Shown here in pieces: positions 11,018 to 31,000 of a DNA stretch of 32,724 nucleotides (its first letter is position 1; the number at the start of each line of letters is the position of its first letter). The position numbers and the translations under genes are program-made. This stretch comes from Folioceros fuciformis (lineage: Eukaryota): contig JBNGIO010006038.1 of NCBI GenBank assembly GCA_049999805.1, positions 1-32,724 of the forward strand, written 5' to 3'. The notes below the pieces were generated by a model, which was not told the origin of the DNA, searched no databases, and was given only the letters and a program-made list of their open reading frames with translations.

Positions 11018-12162
11018 CTAAGTTGTAGAATGTTTAGCCAGGAAACTTCTTCCAATGTTGCTGGAGCAAACGTTTGTAGAGCTGGCATACGCCGTAACAG
11101 CTTCGATAACCTGTGGTGTCACAATATCTTGTTGCGCCAAATGAAAGGGAGGTGCATTAGGATGCAACGTCGGCCCAGTATTCGCATGCGAATGACCCAA
11201 AAAATTTGTCGTACCTGTCCGGGTGGAAGGCGAGCAGACATAGTACAAGGTAGTCATGGCTGCCAAAGCCTGGAGAAAAGTGACAGCTTAGTATTTCGAA
11301 CATGAGGATGTTGGATGATAAAGCGTTAGCCAAAAATTTGCAACAGCACTCGCCGTCTTCTGGACGGGGCTCGACAGACACGAGATAAGTAGTGGAATTC
11401 CATCACTTTTGACAATGGCATCAGCACTCGCTGGATCTGCAAAACCAAAGCAGCAATGAATACACGACGTTCATGGCAAGCATTCCTCCCGCCAGAGAAA
11501 AAGTTCCTTCCCTTCCCCTGGCCCAAATGAGTATTGGCAATACCTGCGGAGCAGTTGCAGAGGCCCTCTATGCCAAACTGTACAAGCTTCTCGTTGGACT
11601 CTGTCAAGCAGTCCAGGAAGAGATCTACTACATGGAGCTTTAGCTCCAGATCCAGTCAAACTCCAAGTAAGATTGATGCCATGGTGAACTGGAGCTGGAA
11701 CAGAAAGCAGAAAAATTGTAGGTGATACCTTTCGAAAATCAGCATAGTTGAAAGGATCGTAAGCGAAGTTAGCCAAGTGAGCAACAAGTCGTTCTTTCTG
11801 CTCTGCACTCAAGGAAAGCTGCACTGAGAATGATACGGGACACGACAAATACTTCGGAAGGGCTCCATCACGCGAAAGGGACGAGGCTGAAGAAAAAGAA
11901 AATTCATGCAGCTTGCAAGCTATTTATTTCCACAATGGATGGCAGCTACCGTCGTCCACGGAATTCTGAAACTGAGTCACTAGCTCCTGCACCTCCACCT
12001 CTGCAGAATCAGCGCAGAAGAAGCAAATACCAAAGCACCAGGANNNNNNNNNNNNNNNNNNNNNNNNNNNNNNNNNNNNNNNNNNNNNNNNNNNNNNNNN
12101 NNNNNNNNNNNNNNNNNNNNNNNNNNNNNNNNNNNNNNNNNNNTCTCTGCGCTGCTGAACAT
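11018..12162 (-). CDS. ARMC7: Armadillo repeat-containing protein 7 homolog, 7 exons; exon 1 runs into an assembly gap
   Basis: ATG at 12162 (MFSSAER...), then the gap. Exons: 11986-11950 (ELVTQFQNSVDD), 11802-11729 (EQKERLVAHLANFAYDPFNYADFRK), 11637-11544 (LHVVDLFLDCLTESNEKLVQFGIEGLCNCSA), 11436-11354 (DPASADAIVKSDGIPLLISCLSSPVQKT), 11269-11215 (ALAAMTTLYYVC) and 11127-11018 (stop TAG). LANFAYDP is the ARMC7 signature. Confidence 0.92.
12044..12143. other. Assembly gap (100 N) covering ARMC7 exon 1 end and intron 1 start
   Basis: Run of N. Confidence 0.99.
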
Positions 12163-14360: not shown

Positions 14361-14604
14361 TGCTAGCTGGAGTTCACAGGCCAAATCACTAACACCTGCT
14401 GCAATTCAACACAACAGTAGTTCTGGAGATCACTAAGCCTGCTAGCAGGAGTTAACAGACCGACTGGATGATGAACACCTGGTATAATTCAACACAACTG
14501 TAGTGCTGGAGATCACTAAGCCTGCTAGCTGGAGTTCACAGACAGACTGAATGACGAACACCTGGTGTAATTCAACACAACAACAGTGCTGGAGATCACT
14601 AAGC
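14360..14604. repeat. Three-copy tandem repeat, 79-83 bp unit
   Basis: ctgctagc(t/a)ggagtt...aacacctg...aattcaacacaac...ctggagatcactaagc at 14360, 14439 and 14522. Confidence 0.9.
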
Positions 14605-17061: not shown

Positions 17062-17352
17062 CTGACCTAAACCATCCTACATCCAGTTCTGACCTAAACC
17101 TTACCTAAGTATGACCTAACCTAACCTAGGTCTGACCTAAACCTGACCTAGGTCTGACCTAACCCTAACCTAGATCTGACCTAATCGTAATCTAGGCCTG
17201 ACCTAGATCTAACCTAGGTTTGACCTAAACCTAACCTAGGTCTGACCTAACCCTAACCTAGGTCTGACCTAACCCTAATCTAGGCCTGACCTAGACCTAA
17301 CCTAGGTCCGACCTAAACCTAACCCCAACCAAGAACCCTAACTCTAACCTAC
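17062..17352. repeat. 22-bp satellite (consensus ctgacctaaccctaacctaggt), ~12 copies, telomere-like words
   Basis: Exact 22-bp spacing of units at 17132, 17154, 17176, 17198, 17220, 17242, 17264, 17286 and 17308, with degenerate flanking copies. Confidence 0.92.
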
Positions 17353-23883: not shown

Positions 23884-24017
23884 GCTAAACCTCGCCATGG
23901 ACGCCTAGGGGCTAAACCTCGCCGTGGATGCCTAGGGGCTAAACCTCGCCGTGGATGCCTAGGGGCTAAACCTTGCCGTGCACGCCCACAGGCTAAATCT
24001 CGCCGTGGACACCCAGG
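23884..24017. repeat. 27-bp tandem repeat, 5 copies
   Basis: gctaaacctcgccgtggatgcctaggg at 23884, 23911, 23938, 23965 and 23992. The paralogous unit has only 2 copies (23215, 23242). Confidence 0.92.
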
Positions 24018-25107
24018 TGTGTTTAAACGCCCCTCAACTACATAGGAGAACAACTCATAGTAGGAGAGCTCGCACTATCGCTTCTGCACCCTCCTCATTA
24101 GCGGGATGCTCAGCTCGGAACTTCGATCTGAAGCCCTAAACCCTCCGGCTGTCTTGATATGCACCATTGCTTGGGGTCCCCAGCTATAATCACACGTAAT
24201 GGGTCTACCCGCTTTGTAAAAAAAGGTGCACAAAGAAGGTGTCCCAATCGGTAAAGCTCAAGCCTATTTTTTTTATTAAGAATTATTTTTTTCACACTAC
24301 ATAAAGAGGAAGCCTAAGCCTATTTTTCCTATTATGAACTACTTTTTTTCAGTTTGTAACTTGAAAAGATGGTATAAGACTTCAAAAATTTAGAAAATAC
24401 CTTGAATTATTCGTTTCAAATATTTTTGAAAAAAATAATGGAGTTTGGAAAGAGCAATCATGATACGTGTCGCCCGATGCCCTTGGGATATTTCCATGGT
24501 CGTCGGTGGGTAGACGATTTGTTACATGCAGTTTTGTTACACAAAGTGTATTTTTCTTACACACAAAGTGTCAATGAGCTGTTGAGAGGAGTAAAGAGGG
24601 AAAGAGACGGGGAGTCGGTTGGGACAAGGCTTTGGGGTCTGGAAGTTGAGTGATTTGATTGAGGGATGAGCTATTGTCTTGTTTTGTGACCCTACTGGAG
24701 GGCTCCCGGAGGCTGTGCATCGCAAGCACCATAGCCGGCTCGCTGTTACGTGCCTTGCCTCGCTCCAAGTTGCGGCGTTGCTTCGCTCTTGTTCCTTCGC
24801 TCTCCTACTCTCTCTCTCTCTGCCTCACGTCCAACTCCCACTGCCGTCTTTGCCTTACTGCCCTTGCGTTTCCTGGGGCAAGCACCCGAGTCCATGCCCT
24901 TGTACTCGTGCTATTCTCACCCCGCTCTCTGCCCGGCTTCCATCCCGCCAGCCTGCATTACGCTCCCTGATCTTCCCTATTTCTTCTCCTTTCTTTCCCG
25001 GCTGCCAGGCAGCCTTACTATGCGCCCCGGCGGGAGCCGACAGGGTTGAGAAGAGGCTTCACCGCAGGCAGTTGCTCGCACGCCATTCGGGCTCGCACCA
25101 CCGCAAG

Positions 25108-27266
25108 ATGAGCTACGCAGGGGAGGAGGACGGCGCCGGCAGGCCCAAGCTCAGTCTGCAGCCTCGAGGATCGGCGGCGGATGTCGCCTCCGCTACTTCT
25201 GCCAAGTCCAGCCGGGTGAGTGCGCATTTTTCTTCCTTGTCTTCGCTTCCCGCCATCCCGCGCTCCCTTGCCGCTCTTGGTGCGGGCTTCTTGGTGGTAG
25301 CCGCCCCCGTCGCAATGCGCTCCTGCGTGGCAGGGCTACCGCTCCGTCTCCTCCGCAAGGTTGCGTTGGGTGCTTTGTCGCCTGGCGTGGGACGCGGGAA
25401 AAGCGCGCTGAGATCTGCGGCCTCGCTTGTTGCGTAAATTTATTTACGCGTAGATTAGATTTGGCGCTTTCTGTGCCGGATCAGCTCCCTCTGTTCGGTT
25501 CTTGGATCAAAGGCTGCACTTTTGAAGAAGTCGGATTTTCAGATTCGTCGTCCTCGTTTCCTACGCAATTTCACTGTGCTGATGGAGACGGAGTGGCCAG
25601 GGTCTGGATTCAGGCGTTGCCGTAACACGTCCATGTAGGTCATACCCCTAGGCCGTGGAGGGGGCACGCTTGCTAGCCCTAGGGTTGCGTAGATGTCTCT
25701 GCGGTGTTCTGATTCTGTTTCAAGTGATTCCAGAGCACGTGAACGTTGTGCTCGTTTCTTTCGTATTTGAAGCTGAAGTCTCTCTCGGCCGCATCTTTGT
25801 CACGCCTCTAGGGTTCGATGGTGTTCGCTTGTGGACACAATATTAGTGGCAAGGCTGTGGAGGGTGTCCTTTAGGTGATGAGATGTGTGTTTATCCTCGT
25901 CTGCAGCCGAACCCTTTTGGCGCTGCGAGGCCCAGGGAGCAGGTCATTGCTGAGCGGGAGGGTAAGAAGGAGACCGAGGTTCTCAAGGAGCAGATTCAGA
26001 GAGAATGGAAGCCAACTGTAAGTGTGCCGTTGCTCTCGCTGTCAAACTTCTCTTTCAGTTCTGTGCGTTAATATTAAATCTCAACTCGTCAAAATTTGGA
26101 GAGGCAAATTCTGTGGACCTAGCTTGTATTCTATTCCCGTGTTAGATAATGTGAGTGGTTAGACCAATTGATGCTAGCTCTGAATTTCCTGCTTCTTCGC
26201 CAGATTGTTATGACAGAGGGACAGCGTGAAGAGAAAAAGGCTGCCGAAGCCGAGCTGGCTTTTGCAAAGAGTGAGCTCGACAAGGAAACTGATCCTCTGA
26301 AAGTGAAATCCTTGAGGGATGAAATATCTGTCAAGGAGAAGAAGCTTGATGAGCTTCTATCTTCTTTCGAGGTATGTGTCGCGGAATAGATTCGTGGAGT
26401 CTGGCTTGTACATAGTGCTGAGGGAGGCGCAAATTTCTTGGAACATTTCTGTGGTCCGGATGCGGCCAGTGTTGTGTGGTATCACCATTCAGGCTGTGTA
26501 TTGTGCAGAAGCTAGCTGTTCAAAGTGCGCAAACTGGTGGCACCAGGCGAACTCACGAGCGTACACGAAGAGATGAGGACCGTGTGTCTGGCTCGCCAGC
26601 TCCTCCCCAGTCCTACGGTAACAAAGACTACGGTGGTGAAGGCAATGACGGGTATGGCAATTTTAGCCGAGGCAGAGGCCGCGACCGTGATTCTGACGGA
26701 TCAGGGTCTTATGGAGACACCTGGGGAGGGGCAAAAGGAGGAAGGTCGGGGGGCCCACAGCCGTGTTACACATGCGGGGAGGTACTGTTGTGCGGAATGT
26801 GTCGCTTTTCTGGACGCTGTAGTGAACTTGGTCGCTCCCGAAATGCTGACATCATGCCTCTGCGCAGGTTGGTCATTTCTCTCGGGAGTGTCCAAGCGGA
26901 GGCTCTCGTGGCTACAGTGGAAATTTTGGAGGAGGCCGGAGCAGCTCTGGCCGCCAATGCTACACGTGTGGGATGGAAGGACATTTTTCTAGGGAGTGTC
27001 CCCAGGCAGGAGCTGGGGGCTATGGTGCTCCTCGCGGAGGAAGCTATGGACCACCTGCTGGTGGTGGTTATGGAGGAGGCTACGACTATAATCAGGGCGG
27101 GTATGTCCAGGAATACCCTTCTGCCTATGGTGGGCAGCCTGGTGCAGGATACGGGTCGGGATATGATGATCGCAGTGCTGGAGGCTATGGTGTGGGTAGC
27201 CGTGGAGGCGGGAACTACGCAACAGGTCGAACGGATTATGACACAAGAGGGAACTGGTCACAATGA
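25108..27266 (+). CDS. Plant eIF4B-motif protein with coiled coil, two CCHC zinc knuckles and Gly/Tyr-rich tail, 352 aa, 5 coding exons
   Basis: Exons 25108-25215, 25907-26017, 26204-26371, 26509-26781 and 26868-27266 (all phase 0, GT-AG, 1059 nt). Motifs: RPKLSLQPR and PNPFGAARPREQVIAE (plant eIF4B type), coiled coil EEKKAAEAELAFAKSELDKE...KEKKLDELL, knuckles CYTCGEVGHFSREC and CYTCGMEGHFSREC, and RGG/GGYG repeats. Confidence 0.9.
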
Positions 27267-28020
27267 ACGCACTTAGGGAGCGGTCGAGCAGTCCTCAGGA
27301 GGCTTTTGAGTGGTTCCCCGGGAGAGAAATTTCGAGGCGAGGCAGTGCCCACTTAAATCAGTTTTTTGCCTGGTGGTGCCTGGTTTGGAGTACGTACGAG
27401 GCGGGAAGTGACTTGGATTCTTACTTTTGCCTCTGCTTCTTGTTGCCTTTCCATCTCTGGCTACAAGTCATAGATGCAATATACTGTGACACATAACTTA
27501 CCTTAGATTGTTCAGTCTGGTAACTTTATTCTGTGGATTAGTTGCGGGCGGAGAAATAGGTTGAGACCATGTGATCGATCCTCTTGTAATTTCCACTTCC
27601 TCATAATCTATGTACTGTATGTCAGCAGTGAGGTTCTTCTTAAGTACGTTCCATGTATGAATCCAGTCCATACGGGGATGAATGAAGGGCACGCCGCAAT
27701 CATATAACCCCTGAGGAGCACAATATTCTAAGCTTTTCTGCTTTTGTCGGGGCAAGTCAAAGACACGCCATGTAGTTCGGGAAGTTGAAAAGCGAGGGTC
27801 GTCAGCGGAGCAAATTATGCGTTTGGGCCGCCTAGGGAGCGGAGTAATCGTGCGTTCGGGCTGCCTGTGGGGCGCAGTAATCGTGCATTTGACGTTCTGC
27901 TCCTGGCTTGCTGAATTCTATCATCTCAAGTCTCAAAGTGAAGCGGGGTTGCGAATTCTCCCGTCTCTGTGGAGCCTTGTGTGATGCTTTTACCCTCAGG
28001 CAGACCAGGAATCCGTGGAT

Positions 28021-31000
28021 ATGGACGGCCCCAGCGTCACCTTGCAGGATGAAGGGAACATCAAGATTGACGAAAAATTGGAAGCGAAGGCACTCCGTCG
28101 TGTGATCGCTGCTTACATGAAGTAGGAGCACTTTTTTCTGCTCATGCTTGCTCGAGTCTGCTCTGCTTCTCTCGGGAAGTCTGATGCAACCCTACACGTG
28201 CTCGCGGGAATTCGTGAGATTCGGGAATTTGGTGCACGGTGCGTCCTGATGCTTGTTTTGTCTCCTTTCGGTGTTTCAGCTACTATGACGCCGCCGAAGA
28301 TGATCGCCGACGCTGGATGCGGTCTTACGACAGGCTTAGCTCCTCGCAAAAGGTTTGCAGGCTCGGTTTGTGGACACACTGTGTTATGAGCTGGCAGCTT
28401 GTGTGTGTGGCAGCTACAATGCATGTTTCCGACAACTGTTTGTGATGAATGCCGATTCTTGTTTTCTGTCTAAGCACATTCCACTCACTCAACGTTGTCT
28501 GTATTATAGAATCGTGTTCCCCATTTGCCAAATAAGTATCAGCTGCTGAAGAGGTAATTTCAACACACGGCCATCTCAGATGATGTTGTGCATATGCAAA
28601 TTGTTCCTCTAACCTTTGCACCTTTTTGGTGCCAGGTGCATAGAAATGAATTCAGCCTTTATATTGAATATGGTTCAGGTCCATCCTTCAAACCATTGCC
28701 GTTATCTCTATGGGTTTTGGTCTCCGTTTGCAGTTTGGCAATTTGAGCCTAATAGGGTAGTTGGTGACTGATGTCAATTTGCACGTGTGTAATAACTCTT
28801 TTTGGGGCATCCAGGCATTTGAGCCTCCCTTTGATATTTCAGAGGATGTTTTGCTTGACGGAGCCGACATTCTGTCACGCGCCTCAGGATCTGTTCAGAG
28901 TTTTCACCATCTCTCAGGAAGTGGAGAGAACCATGACAATGTCAGGGGAACAAGAGGTTATAGCACAGTTGATGGCGGCAGGCATCCCGAGGATGAACCA
29001 CCTTTATCATTAGGATACGCTGAAGATATAGACCTTCCGGAGGCCTGGGACGGGGATGGAATAAGTATGTCTTCTCCAGAGGTATAGGCTAGTTGCATGA
29101 GTTTTCTTGGTCGAAAATTTTGTTTTTAATTCTGTATGTGCAATGATTCCGCCGATTTTAGTCTAAAGTTTTTCCTCCGATTGTAGTCTATATTGTCAAA
29201 TGTGTAGATGTGCGCCTTTGTTGGCAGGAAGCTGTCGCACCAGGTCTTTCACCAGATGGTTACAATGGAGTTTATGTACCGCCAGCGGATGTTGATAAGG
29301 TAGACTGTCACCTACCGTGCTTTCACGGACTACGTTTGTTTTTATGGCTCAGTTAATCTCTTCATGGCGACGATTGTGCTTATAACCTCATGTAGGTGCG
29401 GTGCATAATCCGAAACATTGTCCGGGACTGGGCTAAAGAGGTGCGGTCTAGTCACGTCATCCTTCGGTTCACTTTTCCCTTCACACCCGCTGAGGAACAG
29501 TTTGCCAACCTTGGCTTTAACTGAAGAAATGTCTATACAGCAGCATGTGGTTCTCATCAGCGTCCTTTTAAGTTGGCAGGGTGCGGTTGAACGCGAGCAA
29601 TGCTTCAAACCAATCTTGCAAGAGTTGGACCAGCATTTTCCAAACCGCACAGCTGATAGGTAGTGGCATTCTTGAACAAATCCGGAATGGCATTTCCAGG
29701 TGTTATTGGTTCCGTTGTGTGGGAGCGAAAACCTGACGGTGAATGGAACATTCACAATCTTCGTAACGACGTCTATATTTTTACTCTTTCGCATCCAGGT
29801 CGCCAAAATGCTTGGTTCCAGGGGCCGGATTAGCCAGGCTGGCTCTCGAAATTTCGCTCATGGGTGAGCGTTGTTTTATGGTTTCCATGTTTGAAGCTGT
29901 AGCATTTGGGAAAGTGTTCTTAAGTGGTCGGTTGGTGACAGGGTTTGAGAGCCAGGGCAACGAGTTCTCTTACTACATGCTTATCTGCTCAAGTTTTATT
30001 CTTAATCAGTATGTCAAAATCGGGAGGAGCAGGGATGAGTTATCACGGGCAAATACGTGCTGCTTTAAGTTTAGCATTTGAGTGTGCACATTGTCTGTGC
30101 ATGAGAGTCGTGAGCTTAGTGAACTCGTCTATGGTAACAGACGACTTACTGCTCTCTCGGGTGCAGTGCTCAGGAACCCTTGGAGTGGAAGGTGTATCCA
30201 TGGATCCACAGCAATTGCAACATGTTTTCGGATGCGGACCAACTTAGGCCTGTGCTGTTCCCTGACCTTCATCCTGCAAGGTTGGACGCAATTGTTTTCT
30301 GTATGTATTGTGTGTTTGAAGGAACTCTTGATATAAATGACGGGTCTCTTCAAATCTTAAAGCATGGGTGTTATACGAGAAAACTGTTCATGACTTCATG
30401 TGGATGGTCTGTGGTTAGTGTTGTTGCTTGTTTACTCGAGCACGAGTTGACTCGTGTTAAGCACTTTGCTCATTTTTCAGTGCAGGAATCACAGAAGGAT
30501 TTTCCATGTGTGCCGGCGATTTTGTCGAAGTGTATAGTCATCCGAGTCAGGCTGGTACATTTTGCAGAAGATGTAGAGTTTGTATGTGGCACCTCGTCTG
30601 GAACCACTTCGACTAAATGAGACGGGGTGGTATGGAACAGGGGCTTGGGATGCAGTGGTCACGTGCTTCTTCCTGGACACTGCTCATAACATTATTGAAT
30701 ACGTGGAGGTGATTTACAAAGCTCTCAGACCTGGTGGGGTACGTTTACCTCCTCCCCCGTGAGCTCTTCCTTGTTGAGTTTGTCGGGTAGGGAAACACGT
30801 GGATGTGTCTCGCTCTGTGTCAGGATTGAAATTCCTGATTCCTGTTGTCTTGAAACATGCAATGGCATGGCCTTGATACCAGGTGTGGATAAACTTGGGG
30901 CCACTCCTCTATCACTTCGCCGAGGCTCACAGCTATTCTGTGGAAGACGTAAGCTGTCTTGTCCTGGCAAGCTGTGGGTGTTCCTGATAACTGTGAATGC

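Follow-up and report, generated by a model that had tools for sequence, protein, structure and literature searches.

Plant eIF4B contains two short sequence blocks in the middle of the protein, at residues 274–311 of 383 in the eIF4B3-like protein of Cynara, between long N- and C-terminal regions (positions 1–234 and 284–502 of the Pfam profile PF06273), and it has no zinc knuckles. According to the excerpted text of PMC4718061, the 45–280 segment of wheat eIF4B lacks both eIF4A sites; the blocks are placed here in Cynara numbering, and no function is assigned to them in the literature excerpts consulted. The plant cold-shock-domain/GRP2 proteins and the CNBP/Gis2/HEXBP proteins carry CX2CX4HX4C knuckles amid Gly-rich sequence, together with a cold-shock domain or as five to seven copies, which in CNBP/Gis2 stand in tandem and occupy most of the protein. 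In animals, eIF4H and eIF4B pair an RNA-binding module, the RRM, with a short eIF4A-contacting region; the eIF4A-interaction region of eIF4H is C-terminal, according to a figure legend in a review (PMC12709193).

The gene described here lies on the + strand of a 32,724-nucleotide stretch of Folioceros fuciformis DNA (the window, that is, the whole stretch analyzed), and is a real, expressed member of an old green-lineage protein family. It extends from the ATG start codon at 25108 to the last base of the stop codon at 27266, and its five exons, all in phase 0 (108, 111, 168, 273 and 399 nt, in order), form a coding sequence of 1059 nt for 352 residues, with a single, terminal stop. The features are as follows.

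24777–25107, + strand: 5' leader (minimum extent), from X1 contig record 1, which covers 24777–25214 and continues in exon 2
24894–25049, + strand: 51-codon upstream ORF of the leader, in a different frame from the main ORF and inside the transcript contig
25108–25215, + strand: exon 1, coding, residues 1–36, with eIF4B-type block 1 (tblastn and contig joints)
25216–25906, + strand: intron 1, 691 nt (GT..AG; joint in X1 and X2)
25907–26017, + strand: exon 2, residues 37–73, with block 2 (Pfam eIF-4B, tblastn and joints)
26018–26203, + strand: intron 2, 186 nt (GT..AG; joint in X1 and X2)
26204–26371, + strand: exon 3, residues 74–129, Glu/Lys/Leu-rich helical region (similarity and orthologue model)
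26372–26508, + strand: intron 3, 137 nt (GT..AG; joint in X1 and X2)
26509–26781, + strand: exon 4, residues 130–220, end of the helix, Arg/Gly/Ser/Asp-rich linker and first half of knuckle 1
26782–26867, + strand: intron 4, 86 nt, interrupting knuckle 1 (GT..AG; joint in X1 and X2)
26868–27266, + strand: exon 5, residues 221–352 and the stop, with the remainder of knuckle 1, the whole of knuckle 2 and the Gly/Tyr-rich tail
27267–27518, + strand: 3' UTR (minimum extent), to the end of X1 contig record 3; the X2 relative aligns to 27623

All four introns have GT and AG at their ends, and all four junctions are seen as joints in spliced contigs from the public runs X1 and X2, which belong to two studies and display the same joints (25215/25907, 26017/26204, 26371/26509 and 26781/26868). 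The X1 contigs match the window exactly, without a single differing letter, and the X2 contigs come from a relative; neither run is on record as RNA, the contig type being our guess, and spliced forms are present. Single X1 contigs span exon 2 to the 3' UTR, and another runs from the leader through exon 1 into exon 2. In tblastn searches with four orthologues, the alignments stop at these exon ends, and the matched segments are collinear with the exons. The initial annotation had placed the last two junctions at 26371/26509 and 26781/26868, and these positions are correct because the X1 and X2 contigs carry both joints; the architecture that it proposed is real and spliced as it supposed, as the contig joints and the orthologue alignments agree. 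Within intron 1, an X1 contig of low depth (10.8) also spans 25333–25935.

The protein is composed of four parts, namely an eIF4B-type motif pair, a helical region broken by Asp-Pro, two CCHC knuckles, and low-complexity sequence rich in Arg/Gly and Gly/Tyr that surrounds and follows the knuckles. Block 1 (RPKLSLQPR) corresponds to residues 12–20 (25141–25167), and block 2 (PNPFGAARPRE), at residues 37–47 (25907–25939), is encoded by the first codons of exon 2. Both knuckles have the CX2CX4HX4C pattern. Knuckle 1 (residues 215–228, 26764–26891) contains intron 4 and shows the pattern only once spliced, knuckle 2 is located at residues 251–264 (26958–26999), and the six frames of the unspliced 32.7-kb window hold a single contiguous pattern of this type. 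Exon 5 matches Pfam zf-CCHC (PF00098) in two stretches with 42.2 bits (E 6.7e-11), above the cut-off of 20.8. The tail (residues 266–352) has 30 Gly and 13 Tyr among its 87 residues, and the whole protein has two RGG sites and 13 GGY/GYG/YGG sites. Pfam detected no RRM in any exon or scanned orthologue, and it found no cold-shock domain (PF00313) either, whether in the exons (E up to 1) or in the orthologues scanned. The best hits outside the family are cold-shock-domain/GRP2 and CNBP/HEXBP/Byr3-type proteins; unlike these, the window protein has only two knuckles and an eIF4B-type N-terminus, and 60% of its length is N-terminal to the knuckles, in contrast to the CNBP/Gis2 layout.

The likeness to eIF4B is genuine and narrow. 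Of the 12 family members scanned, all but P0150 and P0082 (10 proteins) gave a PF06273 match, always within positions 235–283 of the 502-position profile. The moss orthologues, whose blocks are identical, scored 34.9 and 35.8 bits, above the cut-off of 28, and the others 16.5–28.3 bits. The window protein was scored exon by exon rather than as one spliced product, and exon 2 alone gave 21.3 bits (E 1.6e-4, profile 267–283), which is below the cut-off. The expectation that the N-terminal half would match the eIF-4B profile was thus borne out by the moss orthologues, but the resemblance extends over only about 45 residues, or about 9% of the profile. For comparison, a true eIF4B reaches 175.8 bits, its strongest segment lying at profile 3–211; the window protein and its family have no full-length match, and the N- and C-terminal regions of the profile are unmatched in them. 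In a pairwise alignment of 87 columns, the window protein is 37% identical to the eIF4B3-like protein of an angiosperm (E 6e-12). What it has in common with the Cynara protein is the two blocks plus the few residues that follow, although the blocks are near the N-terminus in the window protein. As judged from its sequence, the protein has one motif in common with eIF4B but is not eIF4B itself, because the PF06273 match covers profile 235–283 only.

The initial annotation also regarded the protein as a chimera, possibly restricted to one lineage. This view does not hold, since the identical build occurs in mosses, liverworts, lycophytes, ferns and gymnosperms, as well as in the charophytes Chlorokybus and Chara, and among the 41 proteins examined, 27 combine at least one block with two knuckles at shared positions. 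The streptophyte orthogroup includes a 'CCHC-type domain-containing protein' of Physcomitrium patens (UniRef A0A7I4D283), Sphagnum fallax BDL97_05G123700, Marchantia AXG93_1913s1300, a Selaginella protein named 'keratin, type I cytoskeletal 9-like', Chara braunii CBR_g66777 and Ginkgo Gb_11731. These proteins of 290–357 residues have the same order of parts as the window protein, display no structural difference from it, and are 47–62.5% identical to it. Over nearly the full length, the identity is 60–62.5% with mosses, 58–60% with liverworts, 51–52% with gymnosperms, and 47–48% with Chara and Chlorokybus; exon 3 is 67–75% identical to nine relatives. In an alignment of 15 sequences, both blocks, the helices and both knuckles contain invariant residues, and the window protein fits the collinear layout of the orthogroup (blocks at about 11–20 and 37–47, helices, and knuckles at about 190–275). 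A quick tree follows the plant phylogeny, with seven rows of chlorophytes (support 100), 31 of streptophytes (100) and 25 of land plants (91), and places the window protein inside the land-plant clade and outside the moss and liverwort clade. Database tags for PF00098 and PF06273 occur together on 26 of 72 search hits, and an Atlas cluster of 70 members bears the name 'putative CCHC-type domain-containing protein'. A widespread, annotated orthogroup therefore exists, though its annotation is automatic only. The view that the protein is little described stands: no literature on the architecture or the motif was found, and searches covering architecture, motif and identifiers retrieved no experiment on any family member. 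In flowering plants, word-indexed searches and representatives of 50% clusters yielded no orthologue, and the zinc-knuckle form appears to have been lost there.

Relatives are also present in green algae, namely Chlamydomonas (CHLRE_06g252850, also Cre06.g252850, gene 522875 of the mating-type locus), Coccomyxa, Parachlorella, Botryococcus and Trebouxia. Like the window protein, they have the blocks at the N-terminus, the helical region and a tail rich in Gly and Arg, and those of Chlamydomonas, Coccomyxa and Parachlorella are 33–35% identical to it, but they lack the CCHC knuckles, which none of the 29 block-bearing proteins searched possesses. The conserved core function therefore need not depend on the knuckles. 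The C-termini of Mesostigma and the chlorophytes have their own conserved QDR[FY] motif in seven of eight rows, preceded by SP[YF] in five. We propose that the zinc knuckles were gained at the base of the streptophytes by a knuckle-less ancestral protein, and that the green algae retain such a form. Pfam, at E up to 0.01, did not bear out the UniRef name of the Coccomyxa protein, 'Hyaluronan/mRNA-binding protein domain'.

The structure model of a moss orthologue is mostly of low confidence (mean pLDDT 51.1, pTM 0.24, 194 of 339 residues below 50). The region initially taken for a coiled coil is modeled with pLDDT 80–87 as two helices, H77–99 and H103–137, separated by a break at the conserved Asp-Pro, and may mediate self-association. 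Among solved structures, the full-family profile matched knuckle proteins only (retroviral nucleocapsids, TUT4/7, Lin28 and ZCCHC8), and sequence searches with the knuckle-less Chlamydomonas relative or the 134-residue N-terminal fragment returned nothing meaningful.

Our preferred reading, to which we give a probability of about one half, is that this gene is an intact, transcribed orthologue in an ancient family, and that its product, distinct from true eIF4B and apparently lost in flowering plants, assists translation as an mRNA-bound accessory factor or as an RNA chaperone. By analogy with CNBP/Gis2 and the plant cold-shock-domain proteins, the knuckles and Gly-rich segments would bind single-stranded RNA. 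The eIF4B-type motif pair would dock the protein on the translation-initiation machinery, where the eIF4A helicase or its partners would be the likeliest target; the C-terminal eIF4A-interaction region of eIF4H and the lack of eIF4A sites in wheat eIF4B 45–280 are weak pointers to such a link. The helices may allow the protein to self-associate. A more specific version, which we hold only tentatively and consider rather unlikely, makes the family the green-lineage counterpart of the eIF4H/eIF4B-type helicase cofactors: the block pair and the helices would engage eIF4A, the streptophyte knuckles would replace the animal RRM, and the form would have been lost in flowering plants. The animal factors are alike in design, but use an RRM and have their parts in reverse order. 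A motif pair similar to the blocks is presumably present at the eIF4H C-terminus.

A somewhat less probable account than our preferred one is that the protein acts as a general RNA chaperone of the glycine-rich zinc-knuckle type and is not specifically tied to translation initiation; the blocks would then be a generic basic linear motif, present in eIF4B by coincidence, and serve, for example, RNA or ribosome contact or nuclear import. In favor of this account, the C-terminal half does resemble CSDP3, GRP2 and CNBP-type proteins, the two motifs are short and basic, and disorder is predicted for most of the protein. However, the blocks and the following helices are the parts most conserved over about 1 billion years, green algae keep them without knuckles, and our searches found the blocks outside the family only in eIF4B-type proteins. 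It is improbable that the gene is the working eIF4B of the organism, a short form performing the canonical job rather than an accessory paralogue, given the confined profile match set out above and the far higher score of true eIF4B over a different stretch. This idea draws on the label 'plant specific eIF-4B' given to the Chlamydomonas relative in the available part of PMC11244166, on a Selaginella family fragment named eIF4B2-like, and on the same core in green-algal forms. That two adjacent genes, or a gene and a retroelement Gag knuckle, were wrongly fused in one frame by annotation is very improbable indeed: CCHC knuckles are common in retroelement Gag, as the hits to solved structures illustrate, and knuckle 1 exists only after splicing, but the spliced X1 contigs from the leader to the 3' UTR, the identical joints in X2, and collinear full-length orthologues in at least 27 proteins all contradict such a fusion.

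The gene itself is an ordinary orthologue in a machine-annotated, uncharacterized family, and the family is of more interest than the gene. It has been kept from green algae to gymnosperms, is expressed here, as the spliced transcript contigs show, and contains a sequence block that is among the few conserved in plant eIF4B. The family appears to have escaped study, probably because it is seemingly missing from the model flowering plants. Were the block pair a contact motif for eIF4A or eIF4G, this small protein would offer a handle on the role of the blocks in eIF4B, and would exemplify the loss of a translation accessory factor when the angiosperms arose. Should the helicase-cofactor reading be true, algae, bryophytes, ferns and gymnosperms would possess an undescribed cofactor of translation initiation, and flowering plants would rely on canonical eIF4B alone. 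Moss and liverwort genetics allow a direct test of the role of the family. Among the literature excerpts searched for family gene identifiers, only the paper on the Chlamydomonas mating locus matched. A link to translation, albeit a weak one, is that the Chlamydomonas relative is placed in PMC11244166 among translation-related proteins, with a methylated arginine at R212.

The gene at 25108-27266 comprises five coding exons, whose introns all start with GT and end with AG, and the 1059-nt CDS yields 352 aa with a single terminal stop. The initial annotation described its product as a union of eIF4B-type motifs and zinc knuckles, and the gene model, spliced contigs and orthologues bear this observation out.

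Exons of the gene and motifs of its product
25108-25215, + strand, exon 1, phase 0
25907-26017, + strand, exon 2, phase 0; first codon opens block 2
26204-26371, + strand, exon 3, phase 0
26509-26781, + strand, exon 4, phase 0
26868-27266, + strand, exon 5, phase 0
aa 12-20, block 1, RPKLSLQPR
aa 37-47, block 2, PNPFGAARPRE
aa 215-228, knuckle 1, CX2CX4HX4C, interrupted by intron 4
aa 251-264, knuckle 2, CX2CX4HX4C

Translated in all six frames, the whole window contains one contiguous knuckle pattern, the other knuckle being formed only by splicing. The linker ahead of the knuckles is rich in Gly/Arg/Ser/Asp, and the C-terminal 87 residues include 30 Gly and 13 Tyr. Exon 5 matches the Pfam zf-CCHC profile with E 6.7e-11 and 42.2 bits (cut-off 20.8), and exon 2 alone matches Pfam eIF-4B at profile positions 267-283 of 502 with E 1.6e-4 and 21.3 bits, short of its cut-off (28).

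Two independent lines of evidence, orthologue alignments and spliced contigs, establish that the gene model is true, and an artefact can be virtually dismissed. In tblastn, four orthologues aligned with the window in collinear pieces ending at the proposed exon ends; for the moss orthologue P0003, these were residues 1-35, 35-73, 71-128, 128-206 and 205-339. The public run X1, whose sequence has 0 letters differing from the window, includes a contig joining 24777-25214 to 25906-25935 (before cut shifts) and a second that runs through exons 2, 3, 4 and 5 to 27518 with the introns absent. All four joints recur in X2, from another study and a related organism, alongside many differences that look like third-position changes. 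After the cut shifts, the joints fall at 25215/25907, 26017/26204, 26371/26509 and 26781/26868; the last two, which the initial annotation had predicted, are both present in X1 and X2 contigs. The kind of these runs is a guess, but a contig lacking the four GT..AG introns is a processed transcript; the gene is expressed. Another X1 contig, 25333-25935, covers most of intron 1 and extends into exon 2 at low depth (10.8 vs 271-314 for the spliced contigs), and is probably an unspliced precursor or an intron retention. Within the transcript contig, the 5' leader also carries a 51-codon upstream ORF at 24894-25049 (+), in whose frame another ATG lies at 25020. This ORF differs in frame from the main one and stops 58 nt short of the main ATG.

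The window protein adds a member to a family that is widespread, annotated by machine and unstudied as to function. A search with exon 3 returned 9 proteins at E <= 0.01 among 135 candidates, five of which (Physcomitrium, Sphagnum, Selaginella) have both PF00098 and PF06273. With a profile built from five of the nine, 72 of 8000 scored candidates reached E <= 1e-5, 26 of them with both families. Named members are bryophytes (mosses; the liverworts Calypogeia and Marchantia), vascular plants (the lycophytes Selaginella and Diphasiastrum; the fern Adiantum; the gymnosperms Ginkgo, Wollemia, Cryptomeria and Taxus) and charophytes (Chara, Mesotaenium, Chlorokybus, Mesostigma, Closterium), and beneath them ranked cold-shock-domain/GRP2 and CNBP/HEXBP/Byr3-type knuckle proteins. 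The initial interpretation is partly right: the protein is real and little described, as proposed, but neither a recent chimera nor narrowly lineage-restricted, since the family spans charophytes to gymnosperms.

In a pattern scan of the first 41 proteins, 27 combined one or both blocks with exactly two knuckles in matching places, and 3 had a single knuckle. Blocks only were present in 5 (two fragments and the Mesostigma viride model P0035 among them), and 6 had no block, 4 of these being N-truncated or fragments. P0035, of 245 aa, ends within what aligns as knuckle 1 and is probably truncated; Mesostigma too may have knuckles. In the 15-sequence alignment, some residues of the two blocks, the helices and the two knuckles are invariant, as is a central Asp-Pro. 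Identity with the window protein, over nearly its whole length, is 60-62.5% for mosses, 58-60% for liverworts, 50-57% for lycophytes, 51-52% for Ginkgo/Wollemia and 47-48% for Chara/Chlorokybus.

An AlphaFold2 model was obtained from this 15-sequence alignment, with P0003 as the first row (mean pLDDT 51.1, pTM 0.24). Confidence is good (pLDDT 80-87) only for residues ~77-137, predicted as helices H77-99 and H103-137 with the break at the conserved Asp-Pro. After block 2 come two short helices, 45-53 and 57-68; the knuckles appear as short, low-confidence strands, and the remainder is unstructured. The proposed coiled coil thus takes the form of a conserved helical pair in this orthologue model.

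An exhaustive HMMER search with the profile of these 15 sequences against 1.84 billion representatives, one per 50% cluster, gave 8959 proteins at E <= 0.001 (53 at E <= 1e-30), the best 150 of which were mostly multi-knuckle proteins aligned over the knuckle region only. Names were looked up for 20 of these 150, in two sets of 10. Seven of the first set are green algae (Parachlorella, Botryococcus, Astrephomene, Coccomyxa, Chlamydomonas CHLRE_06g252850, Trebouxia, Symbiochloris) and another is a marine transcript; the second set includes a Selaginella fragment called eIF4B2-like, Closterium, Auxenochlorella and Rubroshorea. Among 151 proteins fetched after the pattern scan, none of the 29 bearing blocks has knuckles. 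The chlorophyte relatives share the blocks and helices with streptophyte members, but have Gly/Arg-rich sequence in place of the knuckles. A C-terminal QDR[FY] is found in 7 of 8 algal rows (Mesostigma plus chlorophytes), preceded by SP[YF] in five, whereas the streptophyte zinc-knuckle forms lack QDR[FY]. The Chlamydomonas mating-type locus carries CHLRE_06g252850 (P0165/P0218), also deposited as mating-locus gene 522875 (522875p, 522875m), as a shared gene whose plus and minus alleles are recorded separately.

Fragments (P0002, P0004-6, P0033, P0036) and Closterium rows were excluded from a quick maximum-likelihood tree, whose 38 rows split into chlorophytes (7, support 100) and streptophytes (31, support 100). 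Land plants form a clade of 25 rows (support 91) containing fern, gymnosperm and moss-plus-liverwort clades; the window protein lies inside the land-plant clade and outside moss plus liverwort, its branching not settled. These relationships fit vertical descent of the family, with knuckles acquired at the streptophyte base.

No angiosperm orthologue was found in word-indexed protein searches or among the best 150 HMMER matches listed. The angiosperm rows of the five-protein profile search were cold-shock-domain proteins only, aligned through their knuckles. With the knuckle-free Ginkgo residues 1-140 as query, 28 of 385 candidates matched at E <= 0.001; 27 are family members, non-angiosperm or without organism name, and the exception, eIF4B3-like and from the angiosperm Cynara (E 3e-4), is matched through the blocks only. 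The Rubroshorea angiosperm model (1219 aa) has its block at residue 527 and is not collinear with the family. The Atlas cluster with the family has 70 members (PF00098 in 99%, PF06273 in 63%), which is small given the hundreds of sequenced angiosperms that would otherwise add to it. We consider loss in flowering plants probable rather than shown, because the five-protein and Ginkgo searches rely on shared 5-residue words and length windows, and a gymnosperm representative of a 50% cluster could conceal angiosperm members in the HMMER search.

PF06273 matches 10 of 12 scanned family members, always inside profile positions 235-283 of 502, with scores of 16.5-35.8 bits, three reaching the 28-bit cut-off. 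The Cynara protein, a true eIF4B with its blocks at residues 274-311 of 383, scores 175.8 bits, its best stretch covering positions 3-211. Its pairwise alignment with a moss member (37% identity, 87 columns, E 6e-12) stops shortly past block 2. Since the profile match is so confined and the alignment ends there, the family and eIF4B, judged by their sequences, have one ~45-residue module in common and nothing else. The family failed eIF4B membership by profile coverage, and a short-form eIF4B is quite improbable.

We estimate at about even odds that the window protein is an RNA-binding accessory factor of translation using this eIF4B-type module. Its parts and their conservation are directly observed; their roles are inferred. 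The two knuckles, with the Gly/Arg and Gly/Tyr stretches, would hold single-stranded RNA. Such binding by CCHC knuckles is established in CNBP/Gis2, Lin28, retroviral nucleocapsids and plant cold-shock-domain proteins. The block pair would be a docking motif common to this protein and eIF4B, and the hints at its partner are weak. A similar pair probably occurs in animal eIF4H, at the C-terminus, and in animal eIF4B, just ahead of the arginine-rich RNA-binding region. The eIF4A-interacting region of eIF4H lies at its C-terminus, according to a review's figure legend (PMC12709193). Wheat eIF4B 45-280, as described in an excerpt of PMC4718061, contains the eIF4G/eIFiso4G site and neither of the two eIF4A sites; in the Cynara protein, the one angiosperm eIF4B compared, the blocks start at 274 in that protein's own numbering. 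A cilia methylome table lists the Chlamydomonas relative, methylated at R212, under translation-related proteins (PMC11244166), a label that in this table is a Pfam name only. A general RNA chaperone, in which the motif has another role, is less likely.

In the literature, with subscription journals and supplements outside coverage, neither the general search nor that on the Chlamydomonas gene turned up a paper on the eIF4B-block plus CCHC architecture. What is of interest is the family, with its unexplained eIF4B module and its apparent loss in flowering plants, rather than the gene at 25108-27266.

Elsewhere in the window, N runs at 1250-1349, 1447-1456 and 12044-12143 are assembly gaps or masked stretches. 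A tandem array at 17088-17324 has 10.8 copies of a 22-nt unit, or alternatively an 88-nt period, and other tandem repeats are of 57 nt (1122-1503, around an N run), 83 nt (14384-14604) and 27 nt (23884-24017). An open frame at 30138-30620 (+), probably one exon of a gene next to this one, aligns with positions 103-139 of the Pfam profile CARME (carnosine N-methyltransferase, PF07942) with E 4.8e-7 and 29.8 bits.
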